Below, one piece after another: positions 2,709 to 53,862 of a stretch of 64,000 nt of DNA. A program made the position numbers and the translations under genes. Below the pieces are notes generated by a model. It had not been told where the DNA came from, searched no databases, and saw nothing but the letters and a program-made list of their open reading frames with translations. The stretch's first letter is position 1, and every line of letters begins with the position of its first letter. Source of the DNA: an uncultured Gammaproteobacteria bacterium (GTDB lineage Bacteria; Patescibacteriota; Patescibacteriia; Magasanikbacterales; GWA2-37-8); NCBI GenBank assembly GCA_964355175.1, contig CAYHBZ010000001.1, positions 304,523 through 368,522 on the forward strand, in the 5' to 3' direction.

Positions 2709-2709
2709 C

Positions 2710-10185: not shown

Positions 10186-11734
<1,549 letters not shown>

Positions 11735-11837
11735 TAAAAAAAGAGAATGATAAGCTCGGAAAAATTCCGAACTATTATTTGTTTTGTTGTTGAATAGACA
11801 GATTTTTAAATATATAAATTTTACTTTATATACTTAT

Positions 11838-28855: not shown

Positions 28856-30445
28856 TTGATTATGAAAAAAATACTTTTTTGGCTGTTATTGGTACTAAAT
28901 TTAGTCTATCCGCTGACCATTATATCCAATACCCTAGACGGTGATTTCGGTTGGCATCTGCGTTTTGGACAGGATATCCACACGCAGAGCTCTTTTCCCT
29001 ACCTCGATACCTACACCTATACAAAATATGGCGAACCTTGGACCAATCACGAGTGGGGCGGCGACTGGATTATTTACCAGGTTTATTCTCATCTAGGATA
29101 CTTCTGGATCAATATCATCGTGGCACTGGCCGGCGCTCTCGCTTTTTGGATTATCGGCAAAGCATTTATTAAAAAACCTGGAGTTTCTTTTTTGTTTTTT
29201 GCTCTGGCCTGCCAGATGGCCGTGTACCATATTTTCGCGCCACGTCTGGCGATGTTTTCGCAATTATTTGCCGCTTTGATTATTTTAATAATTGAAAAAT
29301 ATTCCTCCCGTCCGCGCGCGCTATACCTGATACCGTTTATTATCTGGCTGTGGTCCGTTTTGCACGGTAGCTGGATTTTGGGCTTTATTATTATGAATAT
29401 TTATTTGGGTTGTGCCGTGCTTCCATATATTGTGGGCCAAAAATACCAAAAATATTTTAATGAAGAAAAAAAGCCGCTTACTTTTATTTATCAGCTAATA
29501 GGGATTCAATTGCTGGCGGCAGTGCTAATTATAATCAATCCCTACGGCATAAAAATTTGGCAAGAAATCTTTCAGTATTTTGGACAAAATTACTACAAAG
29601 CCCACATTAGCGAATGGACACCGAGCTATGCTTATCCGGTGTTTCCAAAAATTTTGATTTTGCAGACCATTACCTTAGTATTGGTAATATACGGCTTTAT
29701 CAAACGCAAAGTAAAATTTACTTACCTGACTTTTTTCCTGGCCTTTTTTTACGCGGCCATGATGTACAAACGCCAAGCGATTTTTACCGCCCTGCTTTCC
29801 GCCCCAATATTATATTATACCGCCACTTTTATGCGGGAACAGATGACCAATTTAAAATTTTATAACTTTTTTATAAAACAAAAAGAAAAATTCTATTTTG
29901 TCGGAATAATTATCACGATACTTTTGATAATATTCTATGCCCGCCAAATGCACTATACCGATGATCCTTGGAATGACAAAATTCTTTCCTATAATAACGC
30001 TCCGCCCTACGAAGCGACCATATTTTTACAAAACTATACCGCGGGAAAATCAATAAAATTATTCAATGAATTCAGTTGGGGTGGATTTTTAAATTGGATG
30101 TTGCCAAATGCTCTGGTATATCTGGACGGCCGCGGCAGTGCCACCTGGATGCACGACAAAAATACCAGCATGCTACAACACTATATCGAACTCAAAGAAG
30201 AAGATAATGCCGTAAAAATAATTGAAGATACCGGGGCGGACTATATCATGTTACGCTATCCCAAATTTGTCATTAGCGGCATTCCCAGCTTCGCCGACCG
30301 ACATTTATTTGGTGATAATTTCAAAGAATATTTCGTGAATCATGAAGAAAAACTGAGGGAGAAAATTGACAATAGCGGTCACTGGAAAAAAATATATTCA
30401 GACAATCGCGCTAACATCTGGCAAAAAATTAATCCCGCGCCATAA
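28856..30445 (+). CDS. Polytopic integral membrane protein (more than 10 TM), possibly a GT-C-type glycosyltransferase
   Basis: 529 aa, hydrophobic throughout with periplasmic-loop aromatic and acidic residues. No confident family assignment. Confidence 0.4.
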   Translation: MIMKKILFWLLLVLNLVYPLTIISNTLDGDFGWHLRFGQDIHTQSSFPYLDTYTYTKYGEPWTNHEWGGDWIIYQVYSHLGYFWINIIVALAGALAFWIIGKAFIKKPGVSFLFFALACQMAVYHIFAPRLAMFSQLFAALIILIIEKYSSRPRALYLIPFIIWLWSVLHGSWILGFIIMNIYLGCAVLPYIVGQKYQKYFNEEKKPLTFIYQLIGIQLLAAVLIIINPYGIKIWQEIFQYFGQNYYKAHISEWTPSYAYPVFPKILILQTITLVLVIYGFIKRKVKFTYLTFFLAFFYAAMMYKRQAIFTALLSAPILYYTATFMREQMTNLKFYNFFIKQKEKFYFVGIIITILLIIFYARQMHYTDDPWNDKILSYNNAPPYEATIFLQNYTAGKSIKLFNEFSWGGFLNWMLPNALVYLDGRGSATWMHDKNTSMLQHYIELKEEDNAVKIIEDTGADYIMLRYPKFVISGIPSFADRHLFGDNFKEYFVNHEEKLREKIDNSGHWKKIYSDNRANIWQKINPAP

Positions 30446-31157
30446 CCAGTCCATACACTTTTTGCGCTCCGGCGGATTTTAATACACGCGCACACTCCTG
30501 CATCGTGGCCCCGCTCGTGAAAACATCATCCACCAAAATAATATTTTTAGAGAGCGCGTCACGACCTTGCCAAACAAAAGCGCCATTTAGATTGGACAGG
30601 CGCTCAGCTCGATTTAATTTGGCTTGCTGTTTGGTAAATTTTATTCTCTGTAAATTGAGATCATCCAACTGAATACCCGGATGATCTTTTTTTAATACTT
30701 GAAAAATATTTTGCGCGATTAATTGCGCCTGATTGAATCCGCGCTCACGCCGACGCCGGCTATGTAGCGGCACGGGCACAAGTGTGGCATCACAGCTAGG
30801 CAGATTACCGGCTTGCCAAATAGTATTCAAAAATTCTGTCGTGATTTGAAGCCAAAGATTATTGATATCCGTAACTAGATTATACTTAAATTTTTTTATC
30901 AATCCACTCACCGCTCTATTATTTTGATAATTAAAAAAGGCGGCCACAGCTTCTAGACTGCTGGCCGCCTGACAATTGAGACAATTTTTGCCGTTTAAAT
31001 TTTTCAGATGACAAACTGGACAATAAAATTCTCCGCCGTTAAAACTTTGTATTATACAACTATCACACCACCACACACCCTCTTGATCGCAGCCCAAACA
31101 AAATATCGGAAACAAACAATCCTTTATAAATTGCACTAGCTCCCCTCCCCTAAACAT
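30429..31157 (-). CDS. comF: ComF family competence protein (phosphoribosyltransferase domain, ComFC-like)
   Basis: N-terminal 4-Cys zinc finger (CLGCD..CDSC..CPVC..CLNC) and C-terminal PRTase motif ILVDDVFTSGATM. Confidence 0.75.
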   Translation of the reverse strand: MFRGGELVQFIKDCLFPIFCLGCDQEGVWWCDSCIIQSFNGGEFYCPVCHLKNLNGKNCLNCQAASSLEAVAAFFNYQNNRAVSGLIKKFKYNLVTDINNLWLQITTEFLNTIWQAGNLPSCDATLVPVPLHSRRRRERGFNQAQLIAQNIFQVLKKDHPGIQLDDLNLQRIKFTKQQAKLNRAERLSNLNGAFVWQGRDALSKNIILVDDVFTSGATMQECARVLKSAGAQKVYGLVMARD

Positions 31158-31160
31158 ATT

Positions 31161-31757
31161 TTATTTTACCATTGTAAAATTATCTACAAACCAAGTGTCG
31201 CCACTTTTTACCAAGCTCACTTTGGCCTGAGCGTCTTTTTGAGTAATCACTCCGCCTTTTTCTTCAGTAATTTTTACCTGCAAATCTACCGTCGCGCTGA
31301 CATCAGTCCAAGCGGATATTTTGGCGCTATAGGCCTCCACACTCACGGCATAAAAATTTGGACTATTAGCGGGAATATTAGCCGGAATTTTGGCACTTAA
31401 TTGTTTCCAGTAGCTGTCGGTGGCCAAACTTTCCACATCCATCATATTCTGATAGCGGCTTTCCGAAGAATATGAATTCAATCTTTCCACGAAAATTTTA
31501 GCAAAATTTTGAGCGGCCTTTTGCTGAGTTTCCAAAGTGCTGGTTTTTGGCACATTTACATTCTGTAGATTGGTGACTGGCAAAGTGGTGCCGGCAGGAT
31601 TACTTTCAGAGTCGCCAGGCAATACTGTATTACCAGCATTATCTACTGCCGGAGCATTTTTATTTTTGGAGCGCACATACAAAAATATACTGACACCCAA
31701 AATAAATAATACGATTAAACTAACTACGATAAAAATACGGGCGCGTAATGACATCAT
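31161..31757 (-). CDS. Hypothetical membrane-anchored extracytoplasmic protein (possible VirB8-like component; speculative)
   Basis: N-terminal TM (IFIVVSLIVLFILGVSIFLYV) plus a soluble domain of about 150 aa. Directly downstream of VirB4 on the same strand. Confidence 0.35.
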   Translation of the reverse strand: MMSLRARIFIVVSLIVLFILGVSIFLYVRSKNKNAPAVDNAGNTVLPGDSESNPAGTTLPVTNLQNVNVPKTSTLETQQKAAQNFAKIFVERLNSYSSESRYQNMMDVESLATDSYWKQLSAKIPANIPANSPNFYAVSVEAYSAKISAWTDVSATVDLQVKITEEKGGVITQKDAQAKVSLVKSGDTWFVDNFTMVK

Positions 31758-31766
31758 ACAAAATTA

Positions 31767-33635
31767 TTATTTAGTTTGATTTTCAAATTCTTGTTTGGCG
31801 CGTTCGATCTCAAGCAACTGCTGCGGGTTGGTGGTCACCAGCTGATCTTCGGTATACGAAGCCACGATCTTGATAGCGGCATGTTTGAGACCGGCAAAAA
31901 ATATTCCTTCACCCGGAGCACTCTCCAACAATAAATATTTTTCACTATCCGTAAGCATGAAAACTTTTTGAATGTTGTCCACGGCGGCCGGAGATTGGCG
32001 GAGCAACAATTGCAAAGCCGAATTGGTCACAATCGCCTGTCCGTATTGGGAATGCAAGAAATCATTTACATCCTGCGTAATAGTCGTGACACCCAAATAA
32101 TATTTACGACAGCGTTTCACCAAAGCAAAAATAAATCTGGCGGAATCTTCGTGTTGCATCAGCCACCAGGCTTCATCAATTACGAGCACGCGCTTGCGAC
32201 GCTCGGAGCGCACCGTGTTCCAAATATAATTGATAATCGCGTAAATAGCGAGCGGACGCAATTCATCTTCCAAATCACGCACACTATACACCACCAACTG
32301 ATTTTTCATTTCCACATTGGTTGGCGAATTGAATAGTCCACTAAAAGTACCTTCGGTATATTTTTTCAATTTTAATACCAATTCGTTCGAGCCTTCCATA
32401 CCTTCGAGCACTTCCTGCAAATCTTGCATGATTGGCGCTTCGACAGTATTGAGATCCACACCGGATACGATATCTTTTTTGGCGTAAGTTTCGATGAGCG
32501 CTCTATCGATTACCGAATCCTGCTCAGTAGTAATACCACCAAGCATAATACGGAGTAATCCTTTCACAGTAATAACCGCGCTACGAATAATATCGTCGAC
32601 AGACAAATCCTGCTCCATTGGGCGAGGCAGATCAAATGGATTTACTTTACTCTCACTGCTCAAAGAAATATTAATATAAGTACCACCGACCGCGTCAGAG
32701 AGATGTTTATATTCCATTTCCGGATCAATCACAATCACTTCCAGGCCCATCATGAGAGAGCGCAAAATTTCCAATTTAATGGCATAGCTTTTACCGGCAC
32801 CGGAAGTAGCAAATACTACCATATTGGCATTCTGCATCGAAAAACGATCAAACAAAATCAAACTATTGTTGTGACGATTGATTCCGTACAAGATACCATT
32901 ATCGGAAGTAAGCTCGGCAGAAATAAATGGAAAAGACGCGGCAATCGGCGATGAATTCATGTTGTAGGAAATCATCAATTCATCATTGCACAGCGGCAAA
33001 GTAGAATTAAAACCTTGCTCAGCTTGATACAATACTTTGCGACTCATGATCAATTTACTGCCAAAAATACTTTCGATATCTTCGGATAACTGATCCAATT
33101 TTTCTTTATTTTTGGTATAAATAGTGACATAAAAAGCAAACTGAAAAAAGTGCTCTGTCCCCTGGGTTAGATTGTCGCGCAAGCCTTCAATATCACGCAA
33201 AGCGGTCTCACGAATTGGATCACGCGGCGCGCCCTTTTCGGCATCGGCGCTAATCTGCGCTTCGAGCGCACCTACTTTATTTTTTAATTGTTTCAAAATA
33301 ATTTCGGCTTTAATCGGATAAAAGAACATTGAAATATCCATATTCACCGACAAACCAATCACGGGAGAGCTCCAACCCACGGAAATATAACGCGGATAAT
33401 TCATGATGAAAAGCGTACGACAAAAAGTGGTGCCAAGCTGGATAAAATTGGACTCAATATTAAAAGCCGCCGGCGCGATAATATCACGCAACGACACCAC
33501 GCCCTCACGATAGACCTGCTCTTCTTGCAGAGTAATGAGTTCGGCAGCGGTAGCTTTTTCTAACTTGCTTTTATCTTTACTACCCAAACTCGCTTTATCG
33601 TTTTGTTTGGCAATGAATTGTGGTTTAAAGGCCAT
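31767..33635 (-). CDS. virB4: VirB4/TrbE/CagE-family type IV secretion ATPase, C-terminal portion
   Basis: LGTTFCRTLFIMNYPRYISVGW (VirB4 region), Walker A VFATSGAGKSY, Walker B VLVIDEAWW, GVTTITQDVNDF. Confidence 0.8.
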   Translation of the reverse strand: MAFKPQFIAKQNDKASLGSKDKSKLEKATAAELITLQEEQVYREGVVSLRDIIAPAAFNIESNFIQLGTTFCRTLFIMNYPRYISVGWSSPVIGLSVNMDISMFFYPIKAEIILKQLKNKVGALEAQISADAEKGAPRDPIRETALRDIEGLRDNLTQGTEHFFQFAFYVTIYTKNKEKLDQLSEDIESIFGSKLIMSRKVLYQAEQGFNSTLPLCNDELMISYNMNSSPIAASFPFISAELTSDNGILYGINRHNNSLILFDRFSMQNANMVVFATSGAGKSYAIKLEILRSLMMGLEVIVIDPEMEYKHLSDAVGGTYINISLSSESKVNPFDLPRPMEQDLSVDDIIRSAVITVKGLLRIMLGGITTEQDSVIDRALIETYAKKDIVSGVDLNTVEAPIMQDLQEVLEGMEGSNELVLKLKKYTEGTFSGLFNSPTNVEMKNQLVVYSVRDLEDELRPLAIYAIINYIWNTVRSERRKRVLVIDEAWWLMQHEDSARFIFALVKRCRKYYLGVTTITQDVNDFLHSQYGQAIVTNSALQLLLRQSPAAVDNIQKVFMLTDSEKYLLLESAPGEGIFFAGLKHAAIKIVASYTEDQLVTTNPQQLLEIERAKQEFENQTK

Positions 33636-33638
33636 ATT

Positions 33639-34325
33639 TTATTCTTGTTCAATTTGCATCTTATCCATTGGCGCCATACGCTCGGTGAGAGCGATATCGG
33701 GATTATAAGTAGAGTACAATACTTCTACCAGAGACTGAGTGTCGAGGCGCACCACTTCCAGACCAATTCCGCGCAAACCAGACTCTACTTGGCGCACACG
33801 CTGATCTAAATCATATTTGCGTTTGGTGAATCTTTCCGCTTTTAGTTTTACCGTCACGGCCGGATGAAAAACTTCGCTCAAACGCGCCCAAAAACTTTTT
33901 TGTTTATTGGACAAAGGATCATAAGGCACCACTACATAAAAATTTTTGCTCATAATCTCCCCCATCTCGACAAGCTCCGACACAAAAGATCGATAGTCGG
34001 CAATCTGCGCGCGCAACAATTCATTGGTCTGTTCGCGCTCGCGTTTGAGCAAATCTTCCAGGTACGGCTTGATATATAATTCACGCGACTGAATTACCAC
34101 CTGCAAAGGGTGGTCCAAACCGTTGAGAAAACTCACATAAGCGGATACGATAGCGTTTTGTTCGTCTTCATTTTTCAAAGCAAAATTAATGCTCGATACT
34201 AACATTATAGCACGCATCGTGCCATCTTTCATCACCACGGTATCCTGTCTGATTTCTGAAACAGACAAAAATCTTTGGGCGGATGGTATGCTGGTTTTTT
34301 TTGCTGCCGCTTTTTTATTCTTCAT
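33639..34325 (-). CDS. VirB4-family N-terminal domain encoded as a separate ORF
   Basis: FALKNEDEQNAIVSAYVSFLNGLDHPLQVVIQSR resembles the VirB4/TrbE N-terminal region. Its stop TAA lies 1 nt before the ATG of the downstream ATPase ORF. The two together (228+622 aa) equal a typical about 850-aa VirB4. Confidence 0.5.
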   Translation of the reverse strand: MKNKKAAAKKTSIPSAQRFLSVSEIRQDTVVMKDGTMRAIMLVSSINFALKNEDEQNAIVSAYVSFLNGLDHPLQVVIQSRELYIKPYLEDLLKREREQTNELLRAQIADYRSFVSELVEMGEIMSKNFYVVVPYDPLSNKQKSFWARLSEVFHPAVTVKLKAERFTKRKYDLDQRVRQVESGLRGIGLEVVRLDTQSLVEVLYSTYNPDIALTERMAPMDKMQIEQE

Positions 34326-34331
34326 ATAAAA

Positions 34332-34784
34332 TTAATCTTCCGGTTTATAATAACCGCCGGTATTTACCGCCAAGGCCAAATCGCGCAGACGGTTATAGGA
34401 TAAATTTGGCACCTCCGCGATCTTTTCTACTAGCACCACCGTTTCCATTTTGCGCAATTGTTCCAATTCTTCTTTGGTGTCCATTTTATACCAGATGCGT
34501 CGACTCGGTCGGCGCAGTGTCTGAAACAAATTCAATAAAAAATAATGAAAAGACTGTCCGTTGATTTTTACAAAAGCCAAGATCAGAGAAAAGCTACCTA
34601 GAGTGGCTAGAGAGAAAATGAACAAAGCCATGTCCGCCAATTTAAAAGTAATAAATAAAATCAGTCCGGCAATTAGCAAGATCAAAAACTGACGCGTAGT
34701 CACCGGTCCAAAAATTTTATCCTCAACGTCAATAAATTGTGGCACTACAAACTGTTCCATATTAAATAGCCAACTCTTTTTCAA
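34332..34784 (-). CDS. Small two-TM membrane protein, VirB3/PrgI-like candidate
   Basis: FGPVTTRQFLILLIAGLILFITFKLADMALFIFSLATLGSFSLILAFV is a pair of TM helices in a 140-150-aa protein immediately upstream of virB4, the conserved VirB3 position. Confidence 0.35.
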   Translation of the reverse strand: MKKSWLFNMEQFVVPQFIDVEDKIFGPVTTRQFLILLIAGLILFITFKLADMALFIFSLATLGSFSLILAFVKINGQSFHYFLLNLFQTLRRPSRRIWYKMDTKEELEQLRKMETVVLVEKIAEVPNLSYNRLRDLALAVNTGGYYKPED

Positions 34785-35901
34785 AATTAATTAAAGCTTC
34801 AATTTCCGCTAAAGAAATTTTATCTCTTTCTCCCAGCACTCCGGATAGTGGTCGTCTCTGCTCTATCGCCTCATCCACCGCGCTAATATAAGATTGATAC
34901 AGAGGACTATTATGCCAAGCGTCCCAGGATTTCATAAACAGCAGATAGGATTCTTCTTTCAAGTTCAAAAATTTTTGTTTCAGGCGCTCAGCGGCATCGA
35001 CCGGCTTGGAAGACAGGCGGCGAAAATCTACCAGATTGAAAAATTGAATCTCGTCGAGAGGCCCCATGGCCATCGGTTTGCTATGCACATCGTGCATCAT
35101 CGCTCTAGGAGTCACCGAAGCCGCGCGCATTGGCGCAATATTTTGGGCCGGTTTCTGCTCTGTTTTTTTTGCGATCAAATCTTCGATCGGCGCCGAAGCT
35201 ACGCCGGCACTGAAAATAATTTTATCTACAATATTTTCTTTCACTTCCTTTTTTTCTACTTTCGGCAAGTAAGTGGTTGGTTTGGATTTTTCGGTCAATT
35301 CTCTAGCCTGAGTTTCAGTCAATCCCAATCCACCGTCTTTTATAGAACGGCCACAAGCATCCAGAGTATCAGGTTCACTGCGAATATCTTTTAGACGGAG
35401 CTGAACGACACTACGCAAGCGACTATCAATTTGAGGTGAAACTTTAAATGATAAACTGGAAATGATTTTGGAAACTTGATCGGTGCGATTGGATGCTACG
35501 GTAGTTTTGGCATGTTCACTGTCTGGGACTTCTTCATGGAGCAATGATTTCAAATCTTCATTTTTCAAAACTGGCTTTCCTGGCACTTTTTTATCGTCAT
35601 CCTGAGCGACTTTATTGTCATCCCGAACGGATGTGAGGGATCTTTCCGGCCTGTTAGATTCCTCGCTTACACTCGGAATGACAGTATTCACCTTTGGAAC
35701 GACAGGTGCTAAAACAGGCTTCACAGGTGCGGACACAGGCACAGCCGGTGTTGGCGCCACTGGTGTCGGTGCAACTGTTGGTACAGCCACTGTCGGTGTA
35801 GACGCGCCGGCCTGGCGTTTTTTTATTTCAGTCAAAGAAACCCTCTCGGTCGTGCCGTCGGATTTTTTTACCGTAATCATGATTTGATTATTGTCTGGCA
35901 T
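34762..35901 (-). CDS. Hypothetical protein (Pro/Ala/Val-rich linker) in T4SS cluster; contains an in-frame palindromic-element insertion
   Basis: 379-aa ORF. The segment VIPSVSEESNRPERSLTSVRDDN is encoded by repeat copy B. Confidence 0.4.
   Translation of the reverse strand: MPDNNQIMITVKKSDGTTERVSLTEIKKRQAGASTPTVAVPTVAPTPVAPTPAVPVSAPVKPVLAPVVPKVNTVIPSVSEESNRPERSLTSVRDDNKVAQDDDKKVPGKPVLKNEDLKSLLHEEVPDSEHAKTTVASNRTDQVSKIISSLSFKVSPQIDSRLRSVVQLRLKDIRSEPDTLDACGRSIKDGGLGLTETQARELTEKSKPTTYLPKVEKKEVKENIVDKIIFSAGVASAPIEDLIAKKTEQKPAQNIAPMRAASVTPRAMMHDVHSKPMAMGPLDEIQFFNLVDFRRLSSKPVDAAERLKQKFLNLKEESYLLFMKSWDAWHNSPLYQSYISAVDEAIEQRRPLSGVLGERDKISLAEIEALINFEKELAI
35616..35684. repeat. Palindromic element family, copy B, inserted in-frame in the 379-aa gene
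   Basis: tgtcatcccgaacggatgtgagggatctttccggcctgttagattcctcgcttacactcggaatgacag; an adjacent half-site cgtcatcctgagcg at 35595-35608. Confidence 0.55.
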
Positions 35902-35903
35902 AT

Positions 35904-36914
35904 TTATAAGCTATGTTGATGTAAACCAATCACCAGGCGTAATAATTCTCTGAGCCAATTCTGCACGGCTTGAGTATTTGGTTCATTTTGATAAAAATCG
36001 GCAATAAATTTTTCTTGAGCAAAAGTTTTAATATCCGCTTCATAAACCAAAGCAAATACTTGGTGAACAGCTTCCTGAACTTTCACGCCAGAAACAGCTT
36101 CGGAAGTGGTCGGTATAAATTCTCCATTATAATCCAAAGTACGAATCAAACCATCAAATTCTTTATCCAATTCTTGGGCATTCAAGCCATTATAAGCCAT
36201 CAACAAACGATCGCGCACTGGCACACCTACCACCACCGATTGATAAAAATAATTTTGTAATAAAAATTTATGATCAGATATTGATAAATCCCTAAAATAT
36301 GCCCAGGCCATTTGTATTATTAGACTACTGACCAAAACTTCCAGCCAATAAAACTGTGCACCTTCGTAATCGTCTTCCTTGGTAGCCGCAGGCAAAGAAT
36401 TTAATAATTTTCCGACATAACTAGTTGAAGCCGCGCCGGTAATTATTTGCCTCAAGGTATAGACAAATAAAATATCATCATAATAAGGCAACTTGCCGGC
36501 CAAAATCAAACTAATTTCTTCATCGTTATACGGCTTGATTTCTTTCAGATCAGGCGACAAATTATCAGTAGCGGCTGATACCAAAAAAATCTGTGAAGAT
36601 AAGCTATTTAACAACTCTTGATCGCTGGGGTTGGCTATAAAACTTTTGATAAGATCGACGCTGATTAAACTTATTAAAACCTTATCAATTTTTACAAGCA
36701 GTCCATTACTGGTATTTTGCAATTGTTTGGATAGATTTTCGGCCACACCATAGATACCCTTGGAATTTGGAGTAAACAGCTCTAGACGATCCTCGGCGGC
36801 GACCAATTCATTCAAAGCCAAGACAACCTCATTTTGTGGCTGAGAATAAAAGGTATATAATTTTTGCGCTCCAAGCTTTAAGGCCATATTTAAGAAAATA
36901 TTTTTTCGTTCCAA
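35904..36914 (-). CDS. Hypothetical cytoplasmic protein (T4SS cluster)
   Basis: 336-aa ORF with no TM or signal and no recognisable motifs. Codon usage is consistent with neighbours. Confidence 0.4.
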   Translation of the reverse strand: MERKNIFLNMALKLGAQKLYTFYSQPQNEVVLALNELVAAEDRLELFTPNSKGIYGVAENLSKQLQNTSNGLLVKIDKVLISLISVDLIKSFIANPSDQELLNSLSSQIFLVSAATDNLSPDLKEIKPYNDEEISLILAGKLPYYDDILFVYTLRQIITGAASTSYVGKLLNSLPAATKEDDYEGAQFYWLEVLVSSLIIQMAWAYFRDLSISDHKFLLQNYFYQSVVVGVPVRDRLLMAYNGLNAQELDKEFDGLIRTLDYNGEFIPTTSEAVSGVKVQEAVHQVFALVYEADIKTFAQEKFIADFYQNEPNTQAVQNWLRELLRLVIGLHQHSL

Positions 36915-37963
36915 TGAAATTGATTATCGGATTCGCTGAAATATACCAACTCATCAGTTATTAATTTTTGCTCCTGCAAAATCGAGCTGAACTGGACTAA
37001 TAAATTTAATTGATCTTCATCAATCAAACTAACTTTACTTTTAACTACCGACAATAATTTTTTAATAAAATCAGGGGCTTGAGTTTTTAGCCAATCGGCG
37101 ACTGCGGTGGCACTGCCCAACCATTGGGTGAGATCCGGTAATGCTTGCAAAAAATTCAAATAGGTTGCGGATTTATCAATTTCCGCTTGCGGTTCCACCT
37201 TTTCTTCGTGCAAACATTTATCTTCTGTGATATTTTTCCAAATTTTTCCACTTACCAAAGAGTCGTAAATTACCAATATATATTCCAAAGCGGCTTTCAA
37301 CGGCGCATCTAAGCTGGTAACCTCGATAAATTGTCTAGCAAATTCTTCTACTTTTGTTTCTTCATTATCGGTTTTGAATTCATCCAGCATTTTCACCCAT
37401 TGAGAGATAGATTTATTATTTTTATCATCGAGATCGCCGACAATATTTTTATTTTCAGAGATATCGTCGGCAAATTTGCCGGCATCTTCTTTGTAAATAT
37501 TTATAAAACAATATTGGGCGAAGTAATTTCTAATACTTTCGATAACTTGTATCTTGCCAGACAACACAGCCAACAACAAAAATCTGGAGCCAAGTAAAAA
37601 ATCTTGACGCAAACTTTTCTGTTGAGCAAAATTCAAAAAACCAAGCCAGGCATAATACTTTTGATAAAACCAATTTTGTTCATCATTTAAAAAATCAAAA
37701 AATATTTTTTTATTAGACCAATCTTCCAAAGACCCGAGAATTTCACTATCTGCACCATCGTAGTAATCAGATTGATAATGGTACAAAGAAAACAGCAAAT
37801 TCAGCTGCACCTGTTCACTGGCCAAGACTGATTGATCTACATCAGCCCAATCTCTGGCGGTATAATCCGAGCTATTGTTTTCTAATTTACGCAACAAAAC
37901 CTGGCGCTCCTGCTCTGAGCGCTCTGGAAAAAAATTGGAAATTAATTCTTCGTAAGAAAACAT
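36890..37963 (-). CDS. Hypothetical cytoplasmic protein (T4SS cluster)
   Basis: 357-aa ORF, acidic, helical, with no recognisable motifs. Confidence 0.4.
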   Translation of the reverse strand: MFSYEELISNFFPERSEQERQVLLRKLENNSSDYTARDWADVDQSVLASEQVQLNLLFSLYHYQSDYYDGADSEILGSLEDWSNKKIFFDFLNDEQNWFYQKYYAWLGFLNFAQQKSLRQDFLLGSRFLLLAVLSGKIQVIESIRNYFAQYCFINIYKEDAGKFADDISENKNIVGDLDDKNNKSISQWVKMLDEFKTDNEETKVEEFARQFIEVTSLDAPLKAALEYILVIYDSLVSGKIWKNITEDKCLHEEKVEPQAEIDKSATYLNFLQALPDLTQWLGSATAVADWLKTQAPDFIKKLLSVVKSKVSLIDEDQLNLLVQFSSILQEQKLITDELVYFSESDNQFHWNEKIFS

Positions 37964-37992
37964 ACTACCTGTTTATTTTATTGATCAAAATT

Positions 37993-40900
37993 TTATGATG
38001 TTGGATCTTTCTTATTTTTTTCAGCAGTTCCTTTTTCTACCGGTTTAAATGCCGCCATCTGCCTCTTTGGTGCCTTGCCGTCATCAGTAAAAGCCCCTTC
38101 ATTGTATAAAGAAATCAACTGACTGATATTTGTAATATGCTCCTGCTTACCTTTTGCCATCACAGTAATATTCATTTTACCGGTCTGATAAGCTTCCTGA
38201 GCGTCTACCTGAGATTTCTTGGCCAAAGTCATCAACACATCTTGAGGGTTGGTAAACAACTGATCCTTTACCAATTCATTAAACCAATCATTGGTAGTTT
38301 GCTGGTGTAAGGCGTCTTCTTTATTCTTTATATGTCCAAGACGTTTACCTGATTTTACCTCAGAGTATCTCCCGGCCAGCCCAATACCGTCATCGGAAAA
38401 TTTCTGTGCCCAATTATGACGCCCTGAATCAGACCCATTGGCTTTTTTACCATTAATCAAGAGACCATCCTTTTCTGTAAAATAATCTTCAACGTTTTCC
38501 GTGGAAGCCAAACCGGCCATATGGTTTAGATAACGTGGAGTAGTTTTTTGATGGTTTAAATGACTGGTAATATCACCTCTGGATATACGATACGCTTTGC
38601 CTCTGGTTCTAGTAGCATAGCCTGTACCCTCATCTAAGTTAATATAGGAATGCGATTGTTTACCGGCACGATTGCCAACATCCAATTTGTTGACCTCACC
38701 CAACACACCATCTTGGGCGATTCCAGCACCCACCAATACATGCCTTTGTTTACCTCTGCTAGATTTGATATTATCGGCATGGCCACCATTTTCAGTATGA
38801 GAACCACCGGCCATCTCATCGCGTAAATTGGTAACAAATTGAATTTGAGATTGATTATCATCCTGCGTCTTGATATATTGAGCCATTTTAGACTTATCGG
38901 TAATTGTTTTTAATGGAGCACTGTCAGCACCAAACTTATCACCGAATGTTTTTAATTCACTACCGGTAAAATCTTGATTTTCCAATTTATCATAAAATTG
39001 AGCCACACTCATACCCATTTCTTGCACAGCATAATCCATCACTTTGGCTACTTGTTTATGCATACCGGCAAATTCTAAATCACCACCAGTACTCAAAACC
39101 GCAAACAAATCATTAATTTTTTCAACGTTAAACTCCTTGCCTTGCCAACCAAGCCCACCATCTGCAACATTTTTTTGCATCTCCGCTTTTAAATCAGGTG
39201 CCATCGCGCGCCAAATACCATCATCAAGCCAACTTTTAGAAACACCATGATCAAGCATAGCGGCCATAATATTTTTATCGGCAGAAGTTGGCCCAGTACC
39301 TTTACCCTCTTTCGCATCTTTTCTCTTTTGAATCATCGCCAAAAGATTGGTACCAAAGTTACTGGTATAGGTGCTATAATCCATGTCCGTAAATCTTTTA
39401 CGATAATATTCTCTACCTTCAGATAAAGCCTCGTTTGGCACAGTGATACCTCGAGGTTTGTAAACTTCTTCTTGCTCTACTTCACTCAATAAATAATTAT
39501 GATCTTTGGAATAGGCATTTTTTTCCTCAGTTTCCTTGGCATGAGCCGCTGAATTCTCCCAAGAAATACTAGAGGTTCTTTTGGCTCTAGCTTTCTGTAC
39601 AGCCTCTTTTCTAGCGTCCTTAAGTGTCTGATCATTGTTATCTATAGATGAAATTTCTTCCTGTAGGGTTTCAATACTATCTTCTTTAGCTTTTATCGTA
39701 CTCCCATTTTTTACATCAAAATCGTTAAATGCTTTTTTGGCAGCTTCTAATTCTTCCGGATTGGAAGGATCCGCCGCTCCCAAAGCTGCTTGTAGCCTAT
39801 TTTTTTCCGAAGACAATTTACCAAGCTCTTCCTGTTCCGCTTTTAGCTGAGTGCGTTTGAGGGCCGAACCTTCAGAATGCATATTGTTGGCTGATTCCAA
39901 AATTTCCTGAGCCTCAAGCTCAGCTTTTATTGCCTCTTCGTCAAAGCCATGTTTTGCTTTAGTTAAATTATTGCTGAGTTGCGTTTTGGCAGTATCAGCA
40001 CCAAGTTCGGCTCCAGCTTGCTTTCTGAGAAGGCCCTTACCGCCATGTTTTATTATTTTACCATTTTCATCTTTCTTATCTTCGGTGTCAGAAAAAGCAA
40101 CGGCGGCTTTCTTTTCCAATTCTTCAATTTCAGCATGTTCTGTGCCTTCTTCAGCTGCTATAGCTGCTTGCTTGGCGAGTAATGCTCCGGCATGTTCCAT
40201 GAAATGCAACTTAGCACCACCTTCAGCTAAATGAGCGGCTTTCTCAGACAATTCCGCTTTAAACTTCGCCTCCACCTTGGCGGCGACCACTTGTTTTCCT
40301 TTGCCACTTTTACGATATTCTTCCAATGTTCCCGACATCAGTTCCTTGGTTCGTTCTTTGTTTCTATCAGCTCTTTCATTATGACCAACAACTTGTTCAG
40401 CTATACTACCTTTTTCATATTGAAATTTACCATCTTTAAAACGAGAACTCTCCAAAGTGGCACGGCGACCATACTCTTGGAATTCAGAAGTTTTAGCGGC
40501 AGAGCGTTCTTTTTCCGCGGCCAACATACCTTGGGCAACACGATCAAAGCCATCTGGCATATCACGCAAAAATGCACCTTTAGGAATGGCCGTTATCCTT
40601 TTATCTATCAATTCTTCTTGTAGTTTGGATTGATCTTCTGTTTTCTTTAAAGTTTTACGGCTGCCAATTAATTTGGCGCGAGCTTCATAGCGATTTTTTT
40701 GAAACCAACTCCTTGAATCCTTATCTTCATATTCATATTCACCTTCGATATCTTTACCATTTTCATCTTTCTTATTAACAAATTTCATTCTGGCGTTTCC
40801 TTTATCATCTAATTTTACATTACCGTGCTCATCTTTCTCCTCCTCCATTTTTAATCTAGGACCTTCCGAACGATAAATTTTCCAGCTTTCCAACTGGCGT

Positions 40901-42189
40901 TTGGCAAAATTTTGAACTCTTTCTACCGTATCTCCCAAAGGTGTCGCATTCCAAACCGCACTCTTGATACCACTGCCAGCGGCACTCACCGCTTTACTAC
41001 CCATATCTTTGGTCTTATTAAATGCCCACATACCGGCCGCTACACCAGAGCCAACCGTAGCCACTTTCTTGGCAAAATCCGTGGCCTTGCTCATCGCACT
41101 GCCACCTACTGTACCAAGCGACTGCGCGGTCTTGGCACCAACAAGTAAAATACCAATTGCGATAGCGAAGTTGGCAATTTTATCAAAACTCATCACCGCG
41201 CTAATACCCACGGTCGCGGCCGCGCCGTTAACTTTCGCACCCGGCATATTTTCTTGCGGAGCGGAATTATTCTCTTTGCTACTAATTTCAGAATTTATCT
41301 GACCACTGCCCACTACCGCAAATGACAGCCATAGGAAAAATACTACGACCGGACCCACGATGACATGATTACCAAACTCACTCCACCATTGCGAAGCATA
41401 TTTTTCGGTTTGCGGAATCACGCTGAGCACAAAAGCAAATGGCGACAACACAATCAAAATCCACAGCACCAACATGCGAGCCAAAAGCATAAATACAAAT
41501 ACGGCCATAATGCCCAAAGTGAGAGCGGCAAAACCAAGTGCGCCCACCGCGGCACCAAAAATTTCTGAATTACTGGTGAGACCTTGCGGACCAGTTTCGG
41601 GATTGAGAGAATAAATTTTATCCAAACTAAAAGCGTTGATCAAATTACCACCGGCCGTGGCGGCGATACCGTTTACAAAAGTAATCATTACCACCTGAGA
41701 AATATCAATAATCACGCCACAAATTATTCGACTGAAATTTACCAAAATAGCGGCAAAGAAAAACTTCACCAACATTTTTTTCCATTCGTATTGTTCTAGA
41801 CCCAAGATAGTACCAAAAGCCACCAGCAACAAAACCACCACAAAAAACATATTGGTAATATCACGCACCATCACCCAGCCTACCTGCACAGCGGTGGAAT
41901 TCAGATAGCCATTATAGCCGGCAATCTCAATAATAAACGACAAACAAAAAATCGCCAGACGAATCATCAAAGCCGCAGCGGCCAAGAGCATGGTCGTGAT
42001 TGCTTTGACAAAAGTATTAGGCTCAAAACCACCGGCGGCGGCCGGCTCGGCATACACCACATTTGTACCCATCACCGCATACACACCCAGACCCAAAACC
42101 AGCAAAAATACAAAAAGGGCCACTTGGTTTTTGTGGGCAGATAAAAAGTTATAGAGTTTAATTGTTCTCGCTTTAATACTTGAGAACAT
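37993..42189 (-). CDS. VirB6/TrbL-like polytopic membrane protein with an about 1000-aa hydrophilic C-terminal extension (1398 aa)
   Basis: The N-terminal about 400 aa have 6-7 TM helices with TrbL/VirB6-like spacing (..VRDITNMFFVVVLLLVAFGTILG.., ..MLVLWILIVLSPFAFVLSVIP..). The C-terminal region is charged, with coiled-coil segments. Confidence 0.7.
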   Translation of the reverse strand: MFSSIKARTIKLYNFLSAHKNQVALFVFLLVLGLGVYAVMGTNVVYAEPAAAGGFEPNTFVKAITTMLLAAAALMIRLAIFCLSFIIEIAGYNGYLNSTAVQVGWVMVRDITNMFFVVVLLLVAFGTILGLEQYEWKKMLVKFFFAAILVNFSRIICGVIIDISQVVMITFVNGIAATAGGNLINAFSLDKIYSLNPETGPQGLTSNSEIFGAAVGALGFAALTLGIMAVFVFMLLARMLVLWILIVLSPFAFVLSVIPQTEKYASQWWSEFGNHVIVGPVVVFFLWLSFAVVGSGQINSEISSKENNSAPQENMPGAKVNGAAATVGISAVMSFDKIANFAIAIGILLVGAKTAQSLGTVGGSAMSKATDFAKKVATVGSGVAAGMWAFNKTKDMGSKAVSAAGSGIKSAVWNATPLGDTVERVQNFAKRQLESWKIYRSEGPRLKMEEEKDEHGNVKLDDKGNARMKFVNKKDENGKDIEGEYEYEDKDSRSWFQKNRYEARAKLIGSRKTLKKTEDQSKLQEELIDKRITAIPKGAFLRDMPDGFDRVAQGMLAAEKERSAAKTSEFQEYGRRATLESSRFKDGKFQYEKGSIAEQVVGHNERADRNKERTKELMSGTLEEYRKSGKGKQVVAAKVEAKFKAELSEKAAHLAEGGAKLHFMEHAGALLAKQAAIAAEEGTEHAEIEELEKKAAVAFSDTEDKKDENGKIIKHGGKGLLRKQAGAELGADTAKTQLSNNLTKAKHGFDEEAIKAELEAQEILESANNMHSEGSALKRTQLKAEQEELGKLSSEKNRLQAALGAADPSNPEELEAAKKAFNDFDVKNGSTIKAKEDSIETLQEEISSIDNNDQTLKDARKEAVQKARAKRTSSISWENSAAHAKETEEKNAYSKDHNYLLSEVEQEEVYKPRGITVPNEALSEGREYYRKRFTDMDYSTYTSNFGTNLLAMIQKRKDAKEGKGTGPTSADKNIMAAMLDHGVSKSWLDDGIWRAMAPDLKAEMQKNVADGGLGWQGKEFNVEKINDLFAVLSTGGDLEFAGMHKQVAKVMDYAVQEMGMSVAQFYDKLENQDFTGSELKTFGDKFGADSAPLKTITDKSKMAQYIKTQDDNQSQIQFVTNLRDEMAGGSHTENGGHADNIKSSRGKQRHVLVGAGIAQDGVLGEVNKLDVGNRAGKQSHSYINLDEGTGYATRTRGKAYRISRGDITSHLNHQKTTPRYLNHMAGLASTENVEDYFTEKDGLLINGKKANGSDSGRHNWAQKFSDDGIGLAGRYSEVKSGKRLGHIKNKEDALHQQTTNDWFNELVKDQLFTNPQDVLMTLAKKSQVDAQEAYQTGKMNITVMAKGKQEHITNISQLISLYNEGAFTDDGKAPKRQMAAFKPVEKGTAEKNKKDPTS

Positions 42190-42390
42190 GAAAATAAATT
42201 TACTGTCATTATTATATCATAATTCAGCTAAGCGAACAAACAAAACCCTCATCTCTCCAAACACTTATCCACACATTTATTTTTAATAAAAAAATTGACA
42301 GTGCTAGACCGATTTGTTAAGGTGAATTAAATGCTCTTTACACTGTGTGTTGAGCTTTTCGCTCACACCAACCACCCCCAAGAGGACGCC

Positions 42391-42714
42391 ATGAAGCTGC
42401 TCGTCAGTCTCACTTGCTTGGCGCTCTCCTGCGCCACCGAACCTCCCCCGACGATCTCGACGACGTCGAGTCTCATCACCACCGACCCGTGCCAGGGCAA
42501 ACAGTGGCTGGAAGAACATATCCTGGACTGCGGTCCAGGCAAATTCTACTGCTACCCCAAAGTGACTCAGCCGAAAAATGCCAACTGCCGGCTGATGTGC
42601 CAGACGCACTGGTACCCTATCAGCTGGGTCGAAGGCCAGGAGGGCGACAGCTACATCCGCATTCGCGACGACTTCACCGGAGATATCCTCCTGTGCCTCG
42701 TGCGAGCAAAATGA
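42391..42714 (+). CDS. Small secreted Cys-rich protein (possible lipoprotein) in high-GC island
   Basis: RBS aagagga; signal peptide MKLLVSLTCLALSCA; 7-8 Cys in about 90 mature residues. GC-rich codon usage (ctg/ctc/gcg/acc) is unlike the rest of the window. Confidence 0.45.
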   Translation: MKLLVSLTCLALSCATEPPPTISTTSSLITTDPCQGKQWLEEHILDCGPGKFYCYPKVTQPKNANCRLMCQTHWYPISWVEGQEGDSYIRIRDDFTGDILLCLVRAK

Positions 42715-42902
42715 GGTGACTCAACGGGGTTTCCGCCAAGGGGCTGACGCTAGCCGTCGGCTCCTGGCTCCCCAACTCATTTAGATAACGGCTTTAGGGC
42801 TGTTTTTTTATTTTTGGAGTTATCCACAGAGATATTGTATTTTTATCAAATTGTGGCATACTAAAATAGTATGGGTAATAAATTACCCTCAATCTAGCCA
42901 AA

Positions 42903-42931
42903 TGGTTGACAGAAACAACCGTTTGTGCTAT
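42903..42931 (+). promoter_or_regulatory. Consensus sigma70-type promoter (TTGACA-17-TATAAT) driving the second island ORF
   Basis: ttgaca gaaacaaccgtttgtgc tataat. A downstream about 210-nt leader has the uORF ATGggaagagattgtggtggaatgtttgtttgcTAA (MGRDCGGMFVC) and a 14-bp hairpin gagattgtggtgga/tccaccacaatctc. Confidence 0.5.
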
Positions 42932-43146
42932 AATAAGCAATCGTTCTTTACAAGTGCTAATTTTGCCTATTTGGGCGAAATTGGCCAATATAACGAGAGA
43001 AGGAAATAAAAATGGGAAGAGATTGTGGTGGAATGTTTGTTTGCTAAGGCAAGCACACAGTCCACCACAATCTCGGACGCATGTTGCTCCAAGATAGTGT
43101 GGTCGGTTCTCACGAACCGCTAGCCTCTCTGTCTCAGGAGAACACC

Positions 43147-43554
43147 ATGCGCTACGCGCTCCTGGCCATCACGGCCGTTCTGTTCGTCGCCTGTGCGTCC
43201 GAAGCCGGAAATTCCGGCCCGGGCAACAGCTCCAACCAATGGCAGCCGACTGCCGACGCCGGGTCGCACAACGACTCCAGCGCCAAGCAGGCCGACAGCA
43301 GCTCGCAGCCGCAACCGGACCAGCAGGTCGTCGAAGTGAACGCCTGCGTGGACCTCAGCGTCAACGACGGCATCTACGACTGCCAGGACGGCAATCCGCA
43401 GACGACCATCGTGGCCAATCCGGAAACGTGCGAGTACCAGGCTGAAATGTGGTACTCTACGCCGGACAAGACCCAGGTCCTGGACGGCGCCAAGCGCGTC
43501 ATCGCCAAGGTCGGCAAGTACACGGTTGACTGCGTGCGCAAAGAGACGAAGTAA
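43147..43554 (+). CDS. Small secreted lipoprotein-like Cys-containing protein in high-GC island
   Basis: RBS aggaga; MRYALLAITAVLFVACASEAG (signal plus lipobox-like VAC); Ser/Gln/Asp-rich low-complexity region, then a domain with 4 Cys. GC about 60%. Confidence 0.45.
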   Translation: MRYALLAITAVLFVACASEAGNSGPGNSSNQWQPTADAGSHNDSSAKQADSSSQPQPDQQVVEVNACVDLSVNDGIYDCQDGNPQTTIVANPETCEYQAEMWYSTPDKTQVLDGAKRVIAKVGKYTVDCVRKETK

Positions 43555-43708
43555 TGCAGAACTTCGTCGCCGGCAAACGCCGGTCCTTCCGCGAGCCCCC
43601 AGCTCGCCCTCCTCCTCTCGTGTCCGCTTCTGCATCGGCGCCATTCCCCATGGCGCCGCGGACACTTCCTTAGGATATTATTTTGTTAGTGTTTTGAGGA
43701 AATAAAAA

Positions 43709-43737
43709 AATCTCGGTTTATGACCGAGATTTTTTGT
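43709..43737. terminator. Bidirectional intrinsic terminator
   Basis: aatctcggt-ttatg-accgagatt flanked by A-run and T-run. It closes the island + strand ORFs and the converging minus-strand giant gene. Confidence 0.5.
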
Positions 43738-53259: not shown

Positions 53260-53862
53260 TTATATTTGTACTTCCAAACCGCCTTGTCTTAACATTTTTA
53301 TTTTATTCCCGACAGCCGATACGATAGTGGTGTGAGGATTATGAGGCAATTCGCCATAATCCAAAATAATATCCGGTTGCTCCGATAGGGATTTAAATAT
53401 TTCATAAAACTCAGCGGCGGAATAACAGCTAGGCTGACCAGCTAAATTGGCGGAAGTGGCGACAAGCGGTCTTTGGATTTTTTCCGTAATTGATTTTATC
53501 AGCGGATAATCGGATACGCGTATGGCTACCGTATTATTTTTACCTACCACTCCCTTGGCCAATTTACCTAGAGCATAGTTACCTACCACGGTAATAGGAC
53601 CAGGCCAATAAGCATGGGCCAGACGATTTAAATTATAATTCCAGAGCAAATATTTTTTGGCCATTTCGATACTATTTACGGTTACTAGTAATGGCTTGTC
53701 GTCACTGCGGCCTTTGATTTTGAAAATTCTATCTACCGCCGCTTGATTGGTAGCGTCACAGCCTAGGCCGTAAGAAGTCTCAGTTGGAAAAACCAAAACT
53801 TTTCCGTTTAAAATTTCGGAAACTACTTGGGCTAGATTGCATTCTGACAGTATTTGCATATT
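53260..53862 (-). CDS. tsaC: L-threonylcarbamoyladenylate synthase (YrdC/Sua5 family)
   Basis: VLVFPTETSYGLGCDATNQAAVDRIFKIKGRSDDKPLLV is the YrdC fold signature. The start is set at the internal MQILSEC Met, abutting the prfB stop; the ORF-track start at 53943 overlaps prfB. Confidence 0.75.
   Translation of the reverse strand, partial: NMQILSECNLAQVVSEILNGKVLVFPTETSYGLGCDATNQAAVDRIFKIKGRSDDKPLLVTVNSIEMAKKYLLWNYNLNRLAHAYWPGPITVVGNYALGKLAKGVVGKNNTVAIRVSDYPLIKSITEKIQRPLVATSANLAGQPSCYSAAEFYEIFKSLSEQPDIILDYGELPHNPHTTIVSAVGNKIKMLRQGGLEVQI

Follow-up and report, generated by a model that had tools for sequence, protein, structure and literature searches.

The window analyzed here is a stretch of 64,000 nucleotides (nt) from contig CAYHBZ010000001.1 (positions 304,523 to 368,522), whose central feature is a cluster of type IV secretion system (T4SS) genes. 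This cluster consists of nine open reading frames (ORFs) between positions 30429 and 42189, all of them present and co-directional on the minus strand, as the original prediction had stated. They are tightly packed, with gaps ranging from -25 to +29 nt, which is consistent with a single transcription unit. The first gene of the operon (37993-42189) codes for a putative extended VirB6-like polytopic membrane protein of 1398 amino acids (aa). It is followed by three genes encoding lineage-specific hypothetical soluble proteins: p357 (357 aa, 36890-37963), p336 (336 aa, or 327 aa according to the gene caller, 35904-36914) and p379 (379 aa, 34762-35901), the latter lying directly upstream of prgI. 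The remaining genes encode a PrgI/VirB3-like protein (150 aa from a TTG start, or 142 aa from an ATG according to the gene caller, 34332-34784), a TrsD/TraD-family protein (228 aa, 33639-34325), a VirB4-family ATPase of the MPF_FATA/CD1110 type (622 aa, 31767-33635), a predicted VirB8-like bitopic membrane protein (198 aa, 31161-31757) and, at the end of the operon, the ComF-family protein ComFC (242 aa, 30429-31157). Besides ComFC, the operon codes for the complete platform that a minimal monoderm T4SS has in the cytoplasmic membrane, i.e., VirB6, VirB3/PrgI, the VirB8-like protein, VirB4 and TrsD. The organism is a Candidatus Magasanikbacteria (class ABY1, Patescibacteria), a group placed within ABY1 in the GTDB taxonomy. 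Collectively, we consider it highly probable (about 85%) that the locus is a resident chromosomal Patescibacteria T4SS cluster, with an arrangement typical of class ABY1 and of Candidatus Magasanikbacteria.

The assignment of the energizing module is based on profile searches. The 622-aa VirB4 exceeds the cut-off of NCBIfam NF045971, the VirB4-like conjugal transfer ATPase of the CD1110 family (357.6 bits for a cut-off of 325), spanning positions 174-728 of this 752-position profile. It also matches Pfam P-loop_TraG (7.7e-28), and both its Walker A (ATSGAGKS) and Walker B (VLVIDE) motifs are intact. After the CD1110 family, the Mycoplasma family gave 277.4 bits, while the VirB4_CagE model reached only 122.7 bits for a cut-off of 643. 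The adjacent TrsD matches NCBIfam NF041427 (2.7e-8) and the N-terminal part of Pfam TraC_F_IV, and its orthologues carry a PF26593 TraC-like assignment. TrsD covers positions 3-119 of the CD1110 VirB4 profile. It is the homologue of roughly the first 170 residues of a full-length monoderm VirB4, and the TrsD and VirB4 pair corresponds to one such protein. The VirB4 described as split in the original prediction is therefore right in terms of homology. A VirB4 scan, with one genome per species, returned more than 571 relatives, and the conservation counts given hereafter derive from the 80 best. Among these, TrsD and VirB4 are encoded by separate ORFs in 74 of 74 loci, across all three relative frames, so that the split can be ascribed neither to a frameshift artefact nor to a recent pseudogenization. 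The possibility that the split VirB4 is a pseudogene was rejected on this ground, and it is a conserved two-gene arrangement around an intact ATPase. The third component of this module, the two-helix VirB3-like protein, was likewise correctly recognized: it matches Pfam PrgI above the cut-off (7.2e-9), contains two hydrophobic transmembrane (TM) helices at residues 32-50 and 54-72, and shares 53-82% identity with its counterparts in relatives.

The two other membrane components could be approached mainly through structure prediction. The 1398-aa protein itself has no match in Pfam (E-value up to 10) or in NCBIfam. Its hydropathy profile indicates about 7-8 hydrophobic helices within residues 1 to ~400, followed by ~970 hydrophilic and charged residues. 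An AlphaFold (AF2) model of residues 1-420, built with an alignment of 15 homologues, is all-helical and of medium confidence (pLDDT 61.6). When this model was compared with the PDB using Foldseek, the top five matches were all TrwI/VirB6 chains of R388 (probability 0.98-1.0, E-value 1.6e-3 to 4e-2, about 280-296 aligned columns), and the matches ranked after them were unrelated and of low probability. Two of the 15 homologues match Pfam TrbL/VirB6 at 1e-4, and the gene occupies the same position in related loci. At the level of sequence, a profile of the N-terminal domain retrieved only low-complexity noise from the PDB, and the C-terminal 978 residues retrieved nothing useful. The VirB6/TrbL-like identity originally proposed thus holds by predicted fold and by weak TrbL matches in homologues, but not by any direct profile match, and we assign this protein with moderate confidence as an "extended VirB6."

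The 198-aa protein likewise has no match of its own in Pfam (E-value up to 10) or NCBIfam. It is composed of an N-terminal TM helix, a disordered linker and a C-terminal NTF2-like domain, which agrees with the bitopic topology of VirB8, namely a short N-terminus, one TM helix and a predicted extracytoplasmic NTF2-like domain. The predicted structure clearly designates it as VirB8-like, and this membrane-anchored protein, for which the original prediction had envisaged a VirB8, VirB5 or VirB1 analog, is by its model a VirB8 analog. This assignment completes the monoderm core set in ABY1, where VirB8 homologues had seldom been retrieved by sequence searches. DNA binding is reported for a VirB8 homologue of Gram-positive bacteria, as cited in a recent review (PMC12857230).

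The last gene of the operon encodes a protein that matches TIGR00201 (5.2e-28, 98 bits, below the curated cut-off of 233 bits) and GntX (8.2e-25, also below its curated cut-off). ComFC proteins combine an N-terminal four-cysteine zinc finger with a PRT-type domain bearing a PRPP loop (PMC9005727). In the present protein, CxxC motifs at residues 20, 31, 46 and 59 form a double zinc ribbon, and the PRPP loop ILVDDVFTSGAT is found at residues 207-218. With this architecture, the 242-aa protein is assigned as ComFC and is predicted to bind single-stranded DNA (ssDNA). Its gene starts 3 nt past the stop codon of the VirB8-like gene, and among relatives this gap is mostly 0-50 nt. At least two CxxC motifs are kept in all 69 ComF orthologues (69/69). 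Among the loci with enough downstream sequence, comF lies on the same strand and within 2.5 kb of VirB4 in 70 of 71. A reverse search of metagenome contigs, starting from ComF, found VirB4 directly upstream in 38 of the 54 loci with enough upstream sequence, and every ComF homologue retrieved with at least 39% identity was linked to VirB4. The adjacency to comF is thus real and conserved. The recQ gene cited together with it is indeed present about 2 kb away, but of the 80 related loci only one shows this adjacency. The fixed place of comF at the end of the operon in Magasanikbacteria offers the hypothesis of a protein-protein interaction of ComFC with VirB4, TrsD or VirB6.

As expected from the original prediction, which had described three cytoplasmic hypothetical proteins, the 357-, 336- and 379-aa proteins have no convincing TM segment by hydropathy and no match in Pfam (E-value up to 10), NCBIfam or PDB sequences. 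Two of them evolve fast. The size of p357 varies among relatives and tblastn detects it in 8 of the 80 loci (29-36% identity), while p336 is detected in 17 of 80 (24-35% identity); the number of ORFs between VirB6 and the p379 gene also differs among loci. An alignment that mixed the unrelated p336-like and p357-like families was discarded, as the loci do not share an orthologous gene at the penultimate position before prgI. p379 belongs to a large family, comprising 1,896 representative clusters at E≤1e-3, which is unannotated in Pfam and whose named sources are all Patescibacteria. Its alignment reveals two motifs, KKxDGT (conserved, N-terminal) and RLKDIR...GGLGL, as well as a linker rich in Pro/Ala and a helical domain conserved at the C-terminus; a search of the PDB with the p379 profile returned no match. 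p379 stands beside PrgI-TrsD-VirB4 in every relative examined, including the most distant members of the family (L083-L088), in which, contig permitting, a ~200-aa gene and then a gene with a PRT domain or of ComF size are found downstream. p379 is an uncharacterized T4SS-associated component. The family is not described in the available portions of two articles on Patescibacteria T4SS (PMC12102498; PMC10633639), and, large as it is and located beside prgI in the relatives examined, it deserves characterization. In one of these distant loci (L084), the p379 homologue and prgI are separated by an inserted 124-aa gene (11371-11745) with 23S_rRNA_IVP/bAvd domains, the accessory protein type found in diversity-generating retroelements, and RecO and RuvX are encoded just upstream of the T4SS locus.

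The gene order of the cluster is conserved in related genomes. With tblastn searches of all window proteins, the order VirB6, variable ORFs, p379, PrgI, TrsD, VirB4, VirB8-like and ComF was recovered on the same strand; the comparative synteny check suggested earlier thus showed that gene order and strand are kept. VirB4 shares 73-89% identity with the 80 best related genomes. Median identities to relatives are 79% for VirB4, 67% for TrsD, 62% for PrgI, 43% for VirB6, 40% for ComF, 34% for the VirB8-like protein and 32% for p379, values that point to a strongly constrained ATPase core and to fast-evolving accessory parts. Where informative, the titles of these 80 genomes read Candidatus Magasanikbacteria, Magasanikiibacteriota or "Patescibacteria group," and no credible title falls outside Magasanikbacteria/Patescibacteria. 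Many of the relatives' metagenome-assembled genomes (L001, L003, L008-L011 and others) bear the title "uncultured Gammaproteobacteria bacterium," which seems to be either a placeholder or an erroneous label in the public records, since the same contigs carry the Patescibacteria-specific operon.

Several observations indicate that this cluster is a resident cellular machine and not a conjugative or mobile element, as the original prediction had argued. No relaxase, coupling protein (T4CP), VirB11, VirB9 or VirB10 domain was found by Pfam searches of nearly all ORFs of at least 150 aa in the 64-kb window. Similarly, no relaxase, coupling protein, integrase or VirB11 is encoded within ±10 kb of the T4SS in seven annotated relatives, and it is from the absence of these genes nearby that the resident nature of the machine follows. 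The guanine-cytosine (GC) content of the cluster (0.410) equals that of the window (0.408), the genes are intact, many species-level genomes have the arrangement in common, and the flanks are occupied by housekeeping genes (ksgA, sua5, prfA, recQ, hisS and 16S rRNA). The alternative of a decayed integrative conjugative element (ICE), which would have lost its relaxase, coupling protein and integrase, can draw on the fact that VirB4 passes the cut-off of a conjugation-ATPase model, and the PrgI-TrsD-VirB4 order presumably mirrors TrsC-TrsD-TrsE of pGO1-type conjugative plasmids. However, decay is hard to reconcile with genes that are all intact and with a VirB4 so well conserved across 80 genomes; synteny with the housekeeping neighbors is conserved, GC content equals the genome average, and neither integrase, repeats nor a tRNA-bounded island was found. 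Moreover, within classes of the phylum, the system occurs almost universally and with a coherent phylogeny (PMC12102498). An ICE remnant is hence scarcely credible.

Outside the operon, two genes at the start of the window encode proteins that the original prediction had connected to TrbC/VirB2-type pilins, and both indeed match Pfam T4SS_pilin above the cut-off. One (3-2708, minus strand), which runs off the window start and is at least 902 aa long, scores 30.4 bits (4.1e-7, cut-off 26.6) and also contains TIG and Big_7 domains. The other (2710-4788, minus strand, 692 aa) matches T4SS_pilin at 2.7e-8, Big_5 at 2e-12 and the pilin-like NCBIfam Mbov_0395 at 3.7e-5. These tandem paralogues (E-value 1.3e-32), located 26 kb from virB4, both possess a signal peptide and an Ig-like extracellular extension of 550-800 aa, which brings them far above the size of canonical pilins. 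They are probable partners of the T4SS machine, and rather than filament subunits they may be adhesins, either displayed on a pilus or anchored in the membrane. Upstream of the operon, another gene (43756-51705, minus strand) encodes a giant Cys-rich secreted or surface protein of 2649 aa, with an N-terminal signal/TM segment and no Pfam or NCBIfam match. A homologue is found by tblastn upstream of VirB6 in 13 loci, and an ORF of 2,700-3,100 aa occupies this position in four of the six distant relatives examined. This syntenic protein, of which the accessible text of PMC12102498 and PMC10633639 gives no description, is a possible host-contact accessory of the T4SS.

The cluster is a further instance of an already known system. 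In fact, the TrsD/VirB4/PrgI/VirB6/pilin set, the linkage to comF in ABY1 and the hypothesis of an import of host DNA or macromolecules were all published between 2023 and 2025, and the present analysis adds the structural identification of a VirB8-like protein, puts numbers on the synteny of comF and recognizes p379 as a family. In Southlakia epibionticum, the T4SS has been shown to be closest to Gram-positive conjugative systems, to include a pilin array and to have no recognizable relaxase or coupling protein (Wang et al., 2023; PMC10633639). A survey of the phylum then identified VirB4 in 2,417 of 3,035 Patescibacteria genomes, mostly as a monophyletic clade nested in MPF_FATA, with TrsD as its commonest companion component and with PrgI-type VirB3, VirB6 and VirB2-like pilins widespread (Quinonero-Coronel et al., 2025; PMC12102498). 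In this survey, VirB8 homologues were rare and "nearly all" in ABY1, relaxases almost absent, ksgA often near virB4 and comF present in ABY1 loci. Like these systems and the S. epibionticum locus (SEML1_0006-0019), the present cluster comprises VirB4 with an adjacent TrsD, a PrgI-type VirB3, VirB6 and pilin-domain proteins. Here also, neither relaxase nor coupling protein is encoded beside virB4, and the genes are chromosomal, among housekeeping genes, with ksgA 10 kb upstream of the operon. As in ABY1, comF is present together with a recognizable VirB8 homologue. The differences are that 1) the pilin genes are distant from virB4 and carry long Ig-like extensions, 2) the cluster contains no VirB1-type hydrolase, whereas S. 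epibionticum has peptidase and lysozyme genes after virB4, and 3) the recombination gene is recQ, while recG or radA is reported for ABY1.

The conjugative MPF_FATA systems (pGO1 Trs, pIP501 Tra, pCF10 Prg and CTn2 CD1110) share with this cluster a VirB4 passing the CD1110 model, the VirB3-TrsD-VirB4 order and a bitopic VirB8-like NTF2 protein, and they also lack VirB7, VirB9, VirB10 and VirB11. In contrast to them, the cluster has no relaxase, coupling protein, VirB1 hydrolase or oriT context, is chromosomal and vertically inherited, and is associated with VirB2-type pilin-domain proteins and an extended VirB6 of 1398 aa. The archaeal Ced/Ted systems are similarly built from a minimal set composed of a VirB4-like ATPase, a VirB6-like protein, small membrane proteins and VirB2-like pilins, operate at a single membrane and have no relaxase. 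By analogy, Ced would be the best functional precedent for single-membrane import, closer than ComB. Nevertheless, VirB4 obtains 58.4 bits with the CedB model NF041017 (cut-off 700) and so is no CedB orthologue, no equivalents of CedA1 or CedA2 were identified, and most VirB4 sequences of Patescibacteria fall outside the archaeal importer cluster (PMC12102498).

The original prediction had proposed a DNA-uptake machine resembling the ComB system of Helicobacter pylori, in which double-stranded DNA (dsDNA) would be taken up and passed to ComEC and ComFC. The two systems are alike in being T4SS without relaxase or coupling protein in organisms possessing ComFC, with comF directly adjacent in the present case, and ComB is a precedent for a T4SS working in the import direction. 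However, ComB belongs to the MPF_T systems of diderms, contains ComB7, ComB9 and ComB10 and moves dsDNA across the outer membrane only, into the periplasm, whereas the cluster is of the monoderm MPF_FATA type, with no VirB7, VirB9 or VirB10 and no outer membrane to cross, and its VirB4 fits the CD1110 and Mycoplasma models far better than VirB4_CagE. The comFC gene of H. pylori lies outside the comB operons, and its product works with ComEC at the inner membrane and not with ComB (PMC9005727). The premise that ComB does without VirB11 is moreover outdated: ComB requires ComB11, an ATPase of the VirB11 family whose gene lies at a distance, and was acquired recently in Helicobacteraceae (PMC13395361). 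As a family assignment, ComB therefore fails, and membership in it or direct analogy to it is very improbable.

How the machine may function can nevertheless be sketched. By reference to established T4SS biology, hexamers of VirB4 would be anchored by VirB3, VirB6 and VirB8 and would power both the extraction of pilins and the translocation of the substrate; the N-terminal domain absent from the shortened VirB4 is probably provided by TrsD. The outcome would be a VirB4-powered channel and/or pilus at the contact with a host bacterium. The VirB8-like ectodomain may prolong this channel through the wall, and the pilin-domain proteins (3-4788), perhaps with the syntenic giant protein, would form the host-contacting surface structure. 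Nucleic acid from the host or from the environment could then be taken up via the channel, with ComFC binding the incoming ssDNA at the cytoplasmic face. DNA import with ComFC as cytoplasmic acceptor is the single likeliest specific mechanism, plausible but tentative, and would be closer to the archaeal Ced importer than to Helicobacter ComB. In its favor, all relatives of this class of T4SS are DNA translocators, the class has a DNA-translocating ancestry, and comF is fixed at the operon end across the lineage. In addition, the only known role of ComFC is the transport and handling of ssDNA (PMC9005727), and import of host DNA or macromolecules is already a published hypothesis for Patescibacteria T4SS (PMC12102498), the speculation on uptake being repeated in a 2025 T4SS review (PMC12857230). 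If DNA import were shown, it would explain the nucleotide and gene supply of auxotrophic epibionts.

Protein export, or pilus attachment with comF only co-transcribed, is about equally likely as DNA import. According to this explanation, which we hold to be a serious contender although short of an even chance, the cluster would be a host-interaction apparatus displaying VirB2-type pili or adhesins and/or exporting proteins, and comF would be a passenger from a separate type IV pilus (T4P)/ComEC pathway. One argument for it, and against DNA import, comes from S. epibionticum, in which the T4SS with its pilin array is essential for epibiotic growth while comEC, comF and dprA are dispensable, comEC being needed only for transformation (PMC10633639); the core role of the machine in this species is thus independent of the Com pathway. 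Other points weigh in the same direction. The two divergent pilin-domain proteins with their Ig-like extensions and the giant surface proteins of the window fit host adhesion or secretion equally well. Neither ComEC, DprA, ComEA nor a coupling protein is encoded in the window. In more distant lineages, comF is unlinked (16 of the 54 loci, with ComF of 33-38% identity), and, as unlinked ComF occurs only among the most distant homologues, the linkage is lineage-limited. Furthermore, it is common in this genome for unrelated genes to be closely packed in one direction, as illustrated by ksgA-sua5-prfA with gaps of 1-25 nt, so that the abutment of comF is weak evidence of a functional link. Caution also applies to two of the assignments themselves: the VirB6 call derives from a medium-confidence model (pLDDT 61.6, TM-scores 0.26-0.46) and two weak Pfam matches, and the probable placement of VirB4 in the Patescibacteria clade from taxonomy and profile scores. 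On the other hand, a passenger status does not easily account for comF being the last operon gene in 70 of 71 genomes although its neighbors have drifted apart to 23-53% identity. Moreover, neither an effector nor a secretion signal or coupling protein was identified, and all characterized MPF_FATA relatives move DNA.

A bolder version of DNA import can be formulated, which we regard as rather unlikely. The T4SS of ABY1/Magasanikbacteria would be a single-membrane, ComEC-independent DNA importer, in which VirB4 and TrsD would pull DNA of the host or of the environment via VirB6, VirB8 and VirB3, with ComFC as dedicated ssDNA acceptor and p379 as a further adaptor. ComFC would here replace the coupling protein of conjugation, running in reverse. 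If true, it would represent the first "reverse conjugation" machine of a monoderm bacterium, through which ultrasmall bacteria could acquire nucleotides and genes. Whatever its substrate, the Patescibacteria T4SS is near-universal in a group that represents a large share of bacterial diversity, and it is essential in the one species tested.

The gene converging with comF (28856-30445, plus strand) overlaps its 3' end by 17 nt and encodes a 529-aa polytopic membrane protein. An identity as ComEC was considered and rejected, as this protein has no Competence-domain match and only a weak match to Wzy-like oligosaccharide polymerases (E-value 0.002). Of the 80 related loci, 18 have a homologue that likewise converges on comF, and in four annotated relatives a minus-strand ORF of 519-533 aa occupies its place. 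On a larger scale, the window has a GC content of 0.41, nearly all genes on one strand and several giant surface proteins, and looks like part of a small, streamlined chromosome. Housekeeping genes (hisS, lepB, trmD, smc, clpP, recQ, ksgA, sua5 and prfA) are dispersed across it. The ORFs listed for sua5 and prfA (53260-53943 and 53861-54937, minus strand) overlap by 83 nt, and the true start of sua5 is probably downstream of its first in-frame start codon. The RNA genes of the window are one 16S rRNA gene and three tRNAs. The 16S rRNA gene is complete (10186-11741, minus strand, 1390 bits) and has no adjacent 23S or 5S, which indicates that the rRNA genes are unlinked; tRNA-Ile and tRNA-Val lie ~2.8 kb downstream of it, past two protein-coding genes.

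Finally, the 1.5-kb spacer between the operon and the giant-protein gene, which is itself closed by a bidirectional hairpin terminator (43705-43735), contains two plus-strand ORFs and a perfect sigma-70 consensus promoter, also on the plus strand. These ORFs form a GC-rich island (42331-43554), with GC contents of 0.58 and 0.62 compared with 0.41 for the window, and their putative products are two small lipoproteins rich in Cys, with MKLLVSLTCLALSC and MRYALLAITAVLFVAC as internal starts. The promoter (TTGACA-17-TATAAT, 42906-42934) precedes the second of them. A hidden RNA gene had been considered for the GC-rich 1.4 kb upstream of virB6, but Rfam returned nothing above noise and the two orphan lipoprotein ORFs were found instead. 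Neither has a Pfam match or a homologue in 88 related loci, and each is the sole member of its protein cluster. The sequence of the first ORF recurs exactly on four contigs (NCBI, Logan and ENA sources), so that an assembly chimera is probably not involved. At the same intergenic site, one relative (L088) carries a RelB/ParE toxin-antitoxin pair, which suggests that the region upstream of virB6 is an insertion hot spot.

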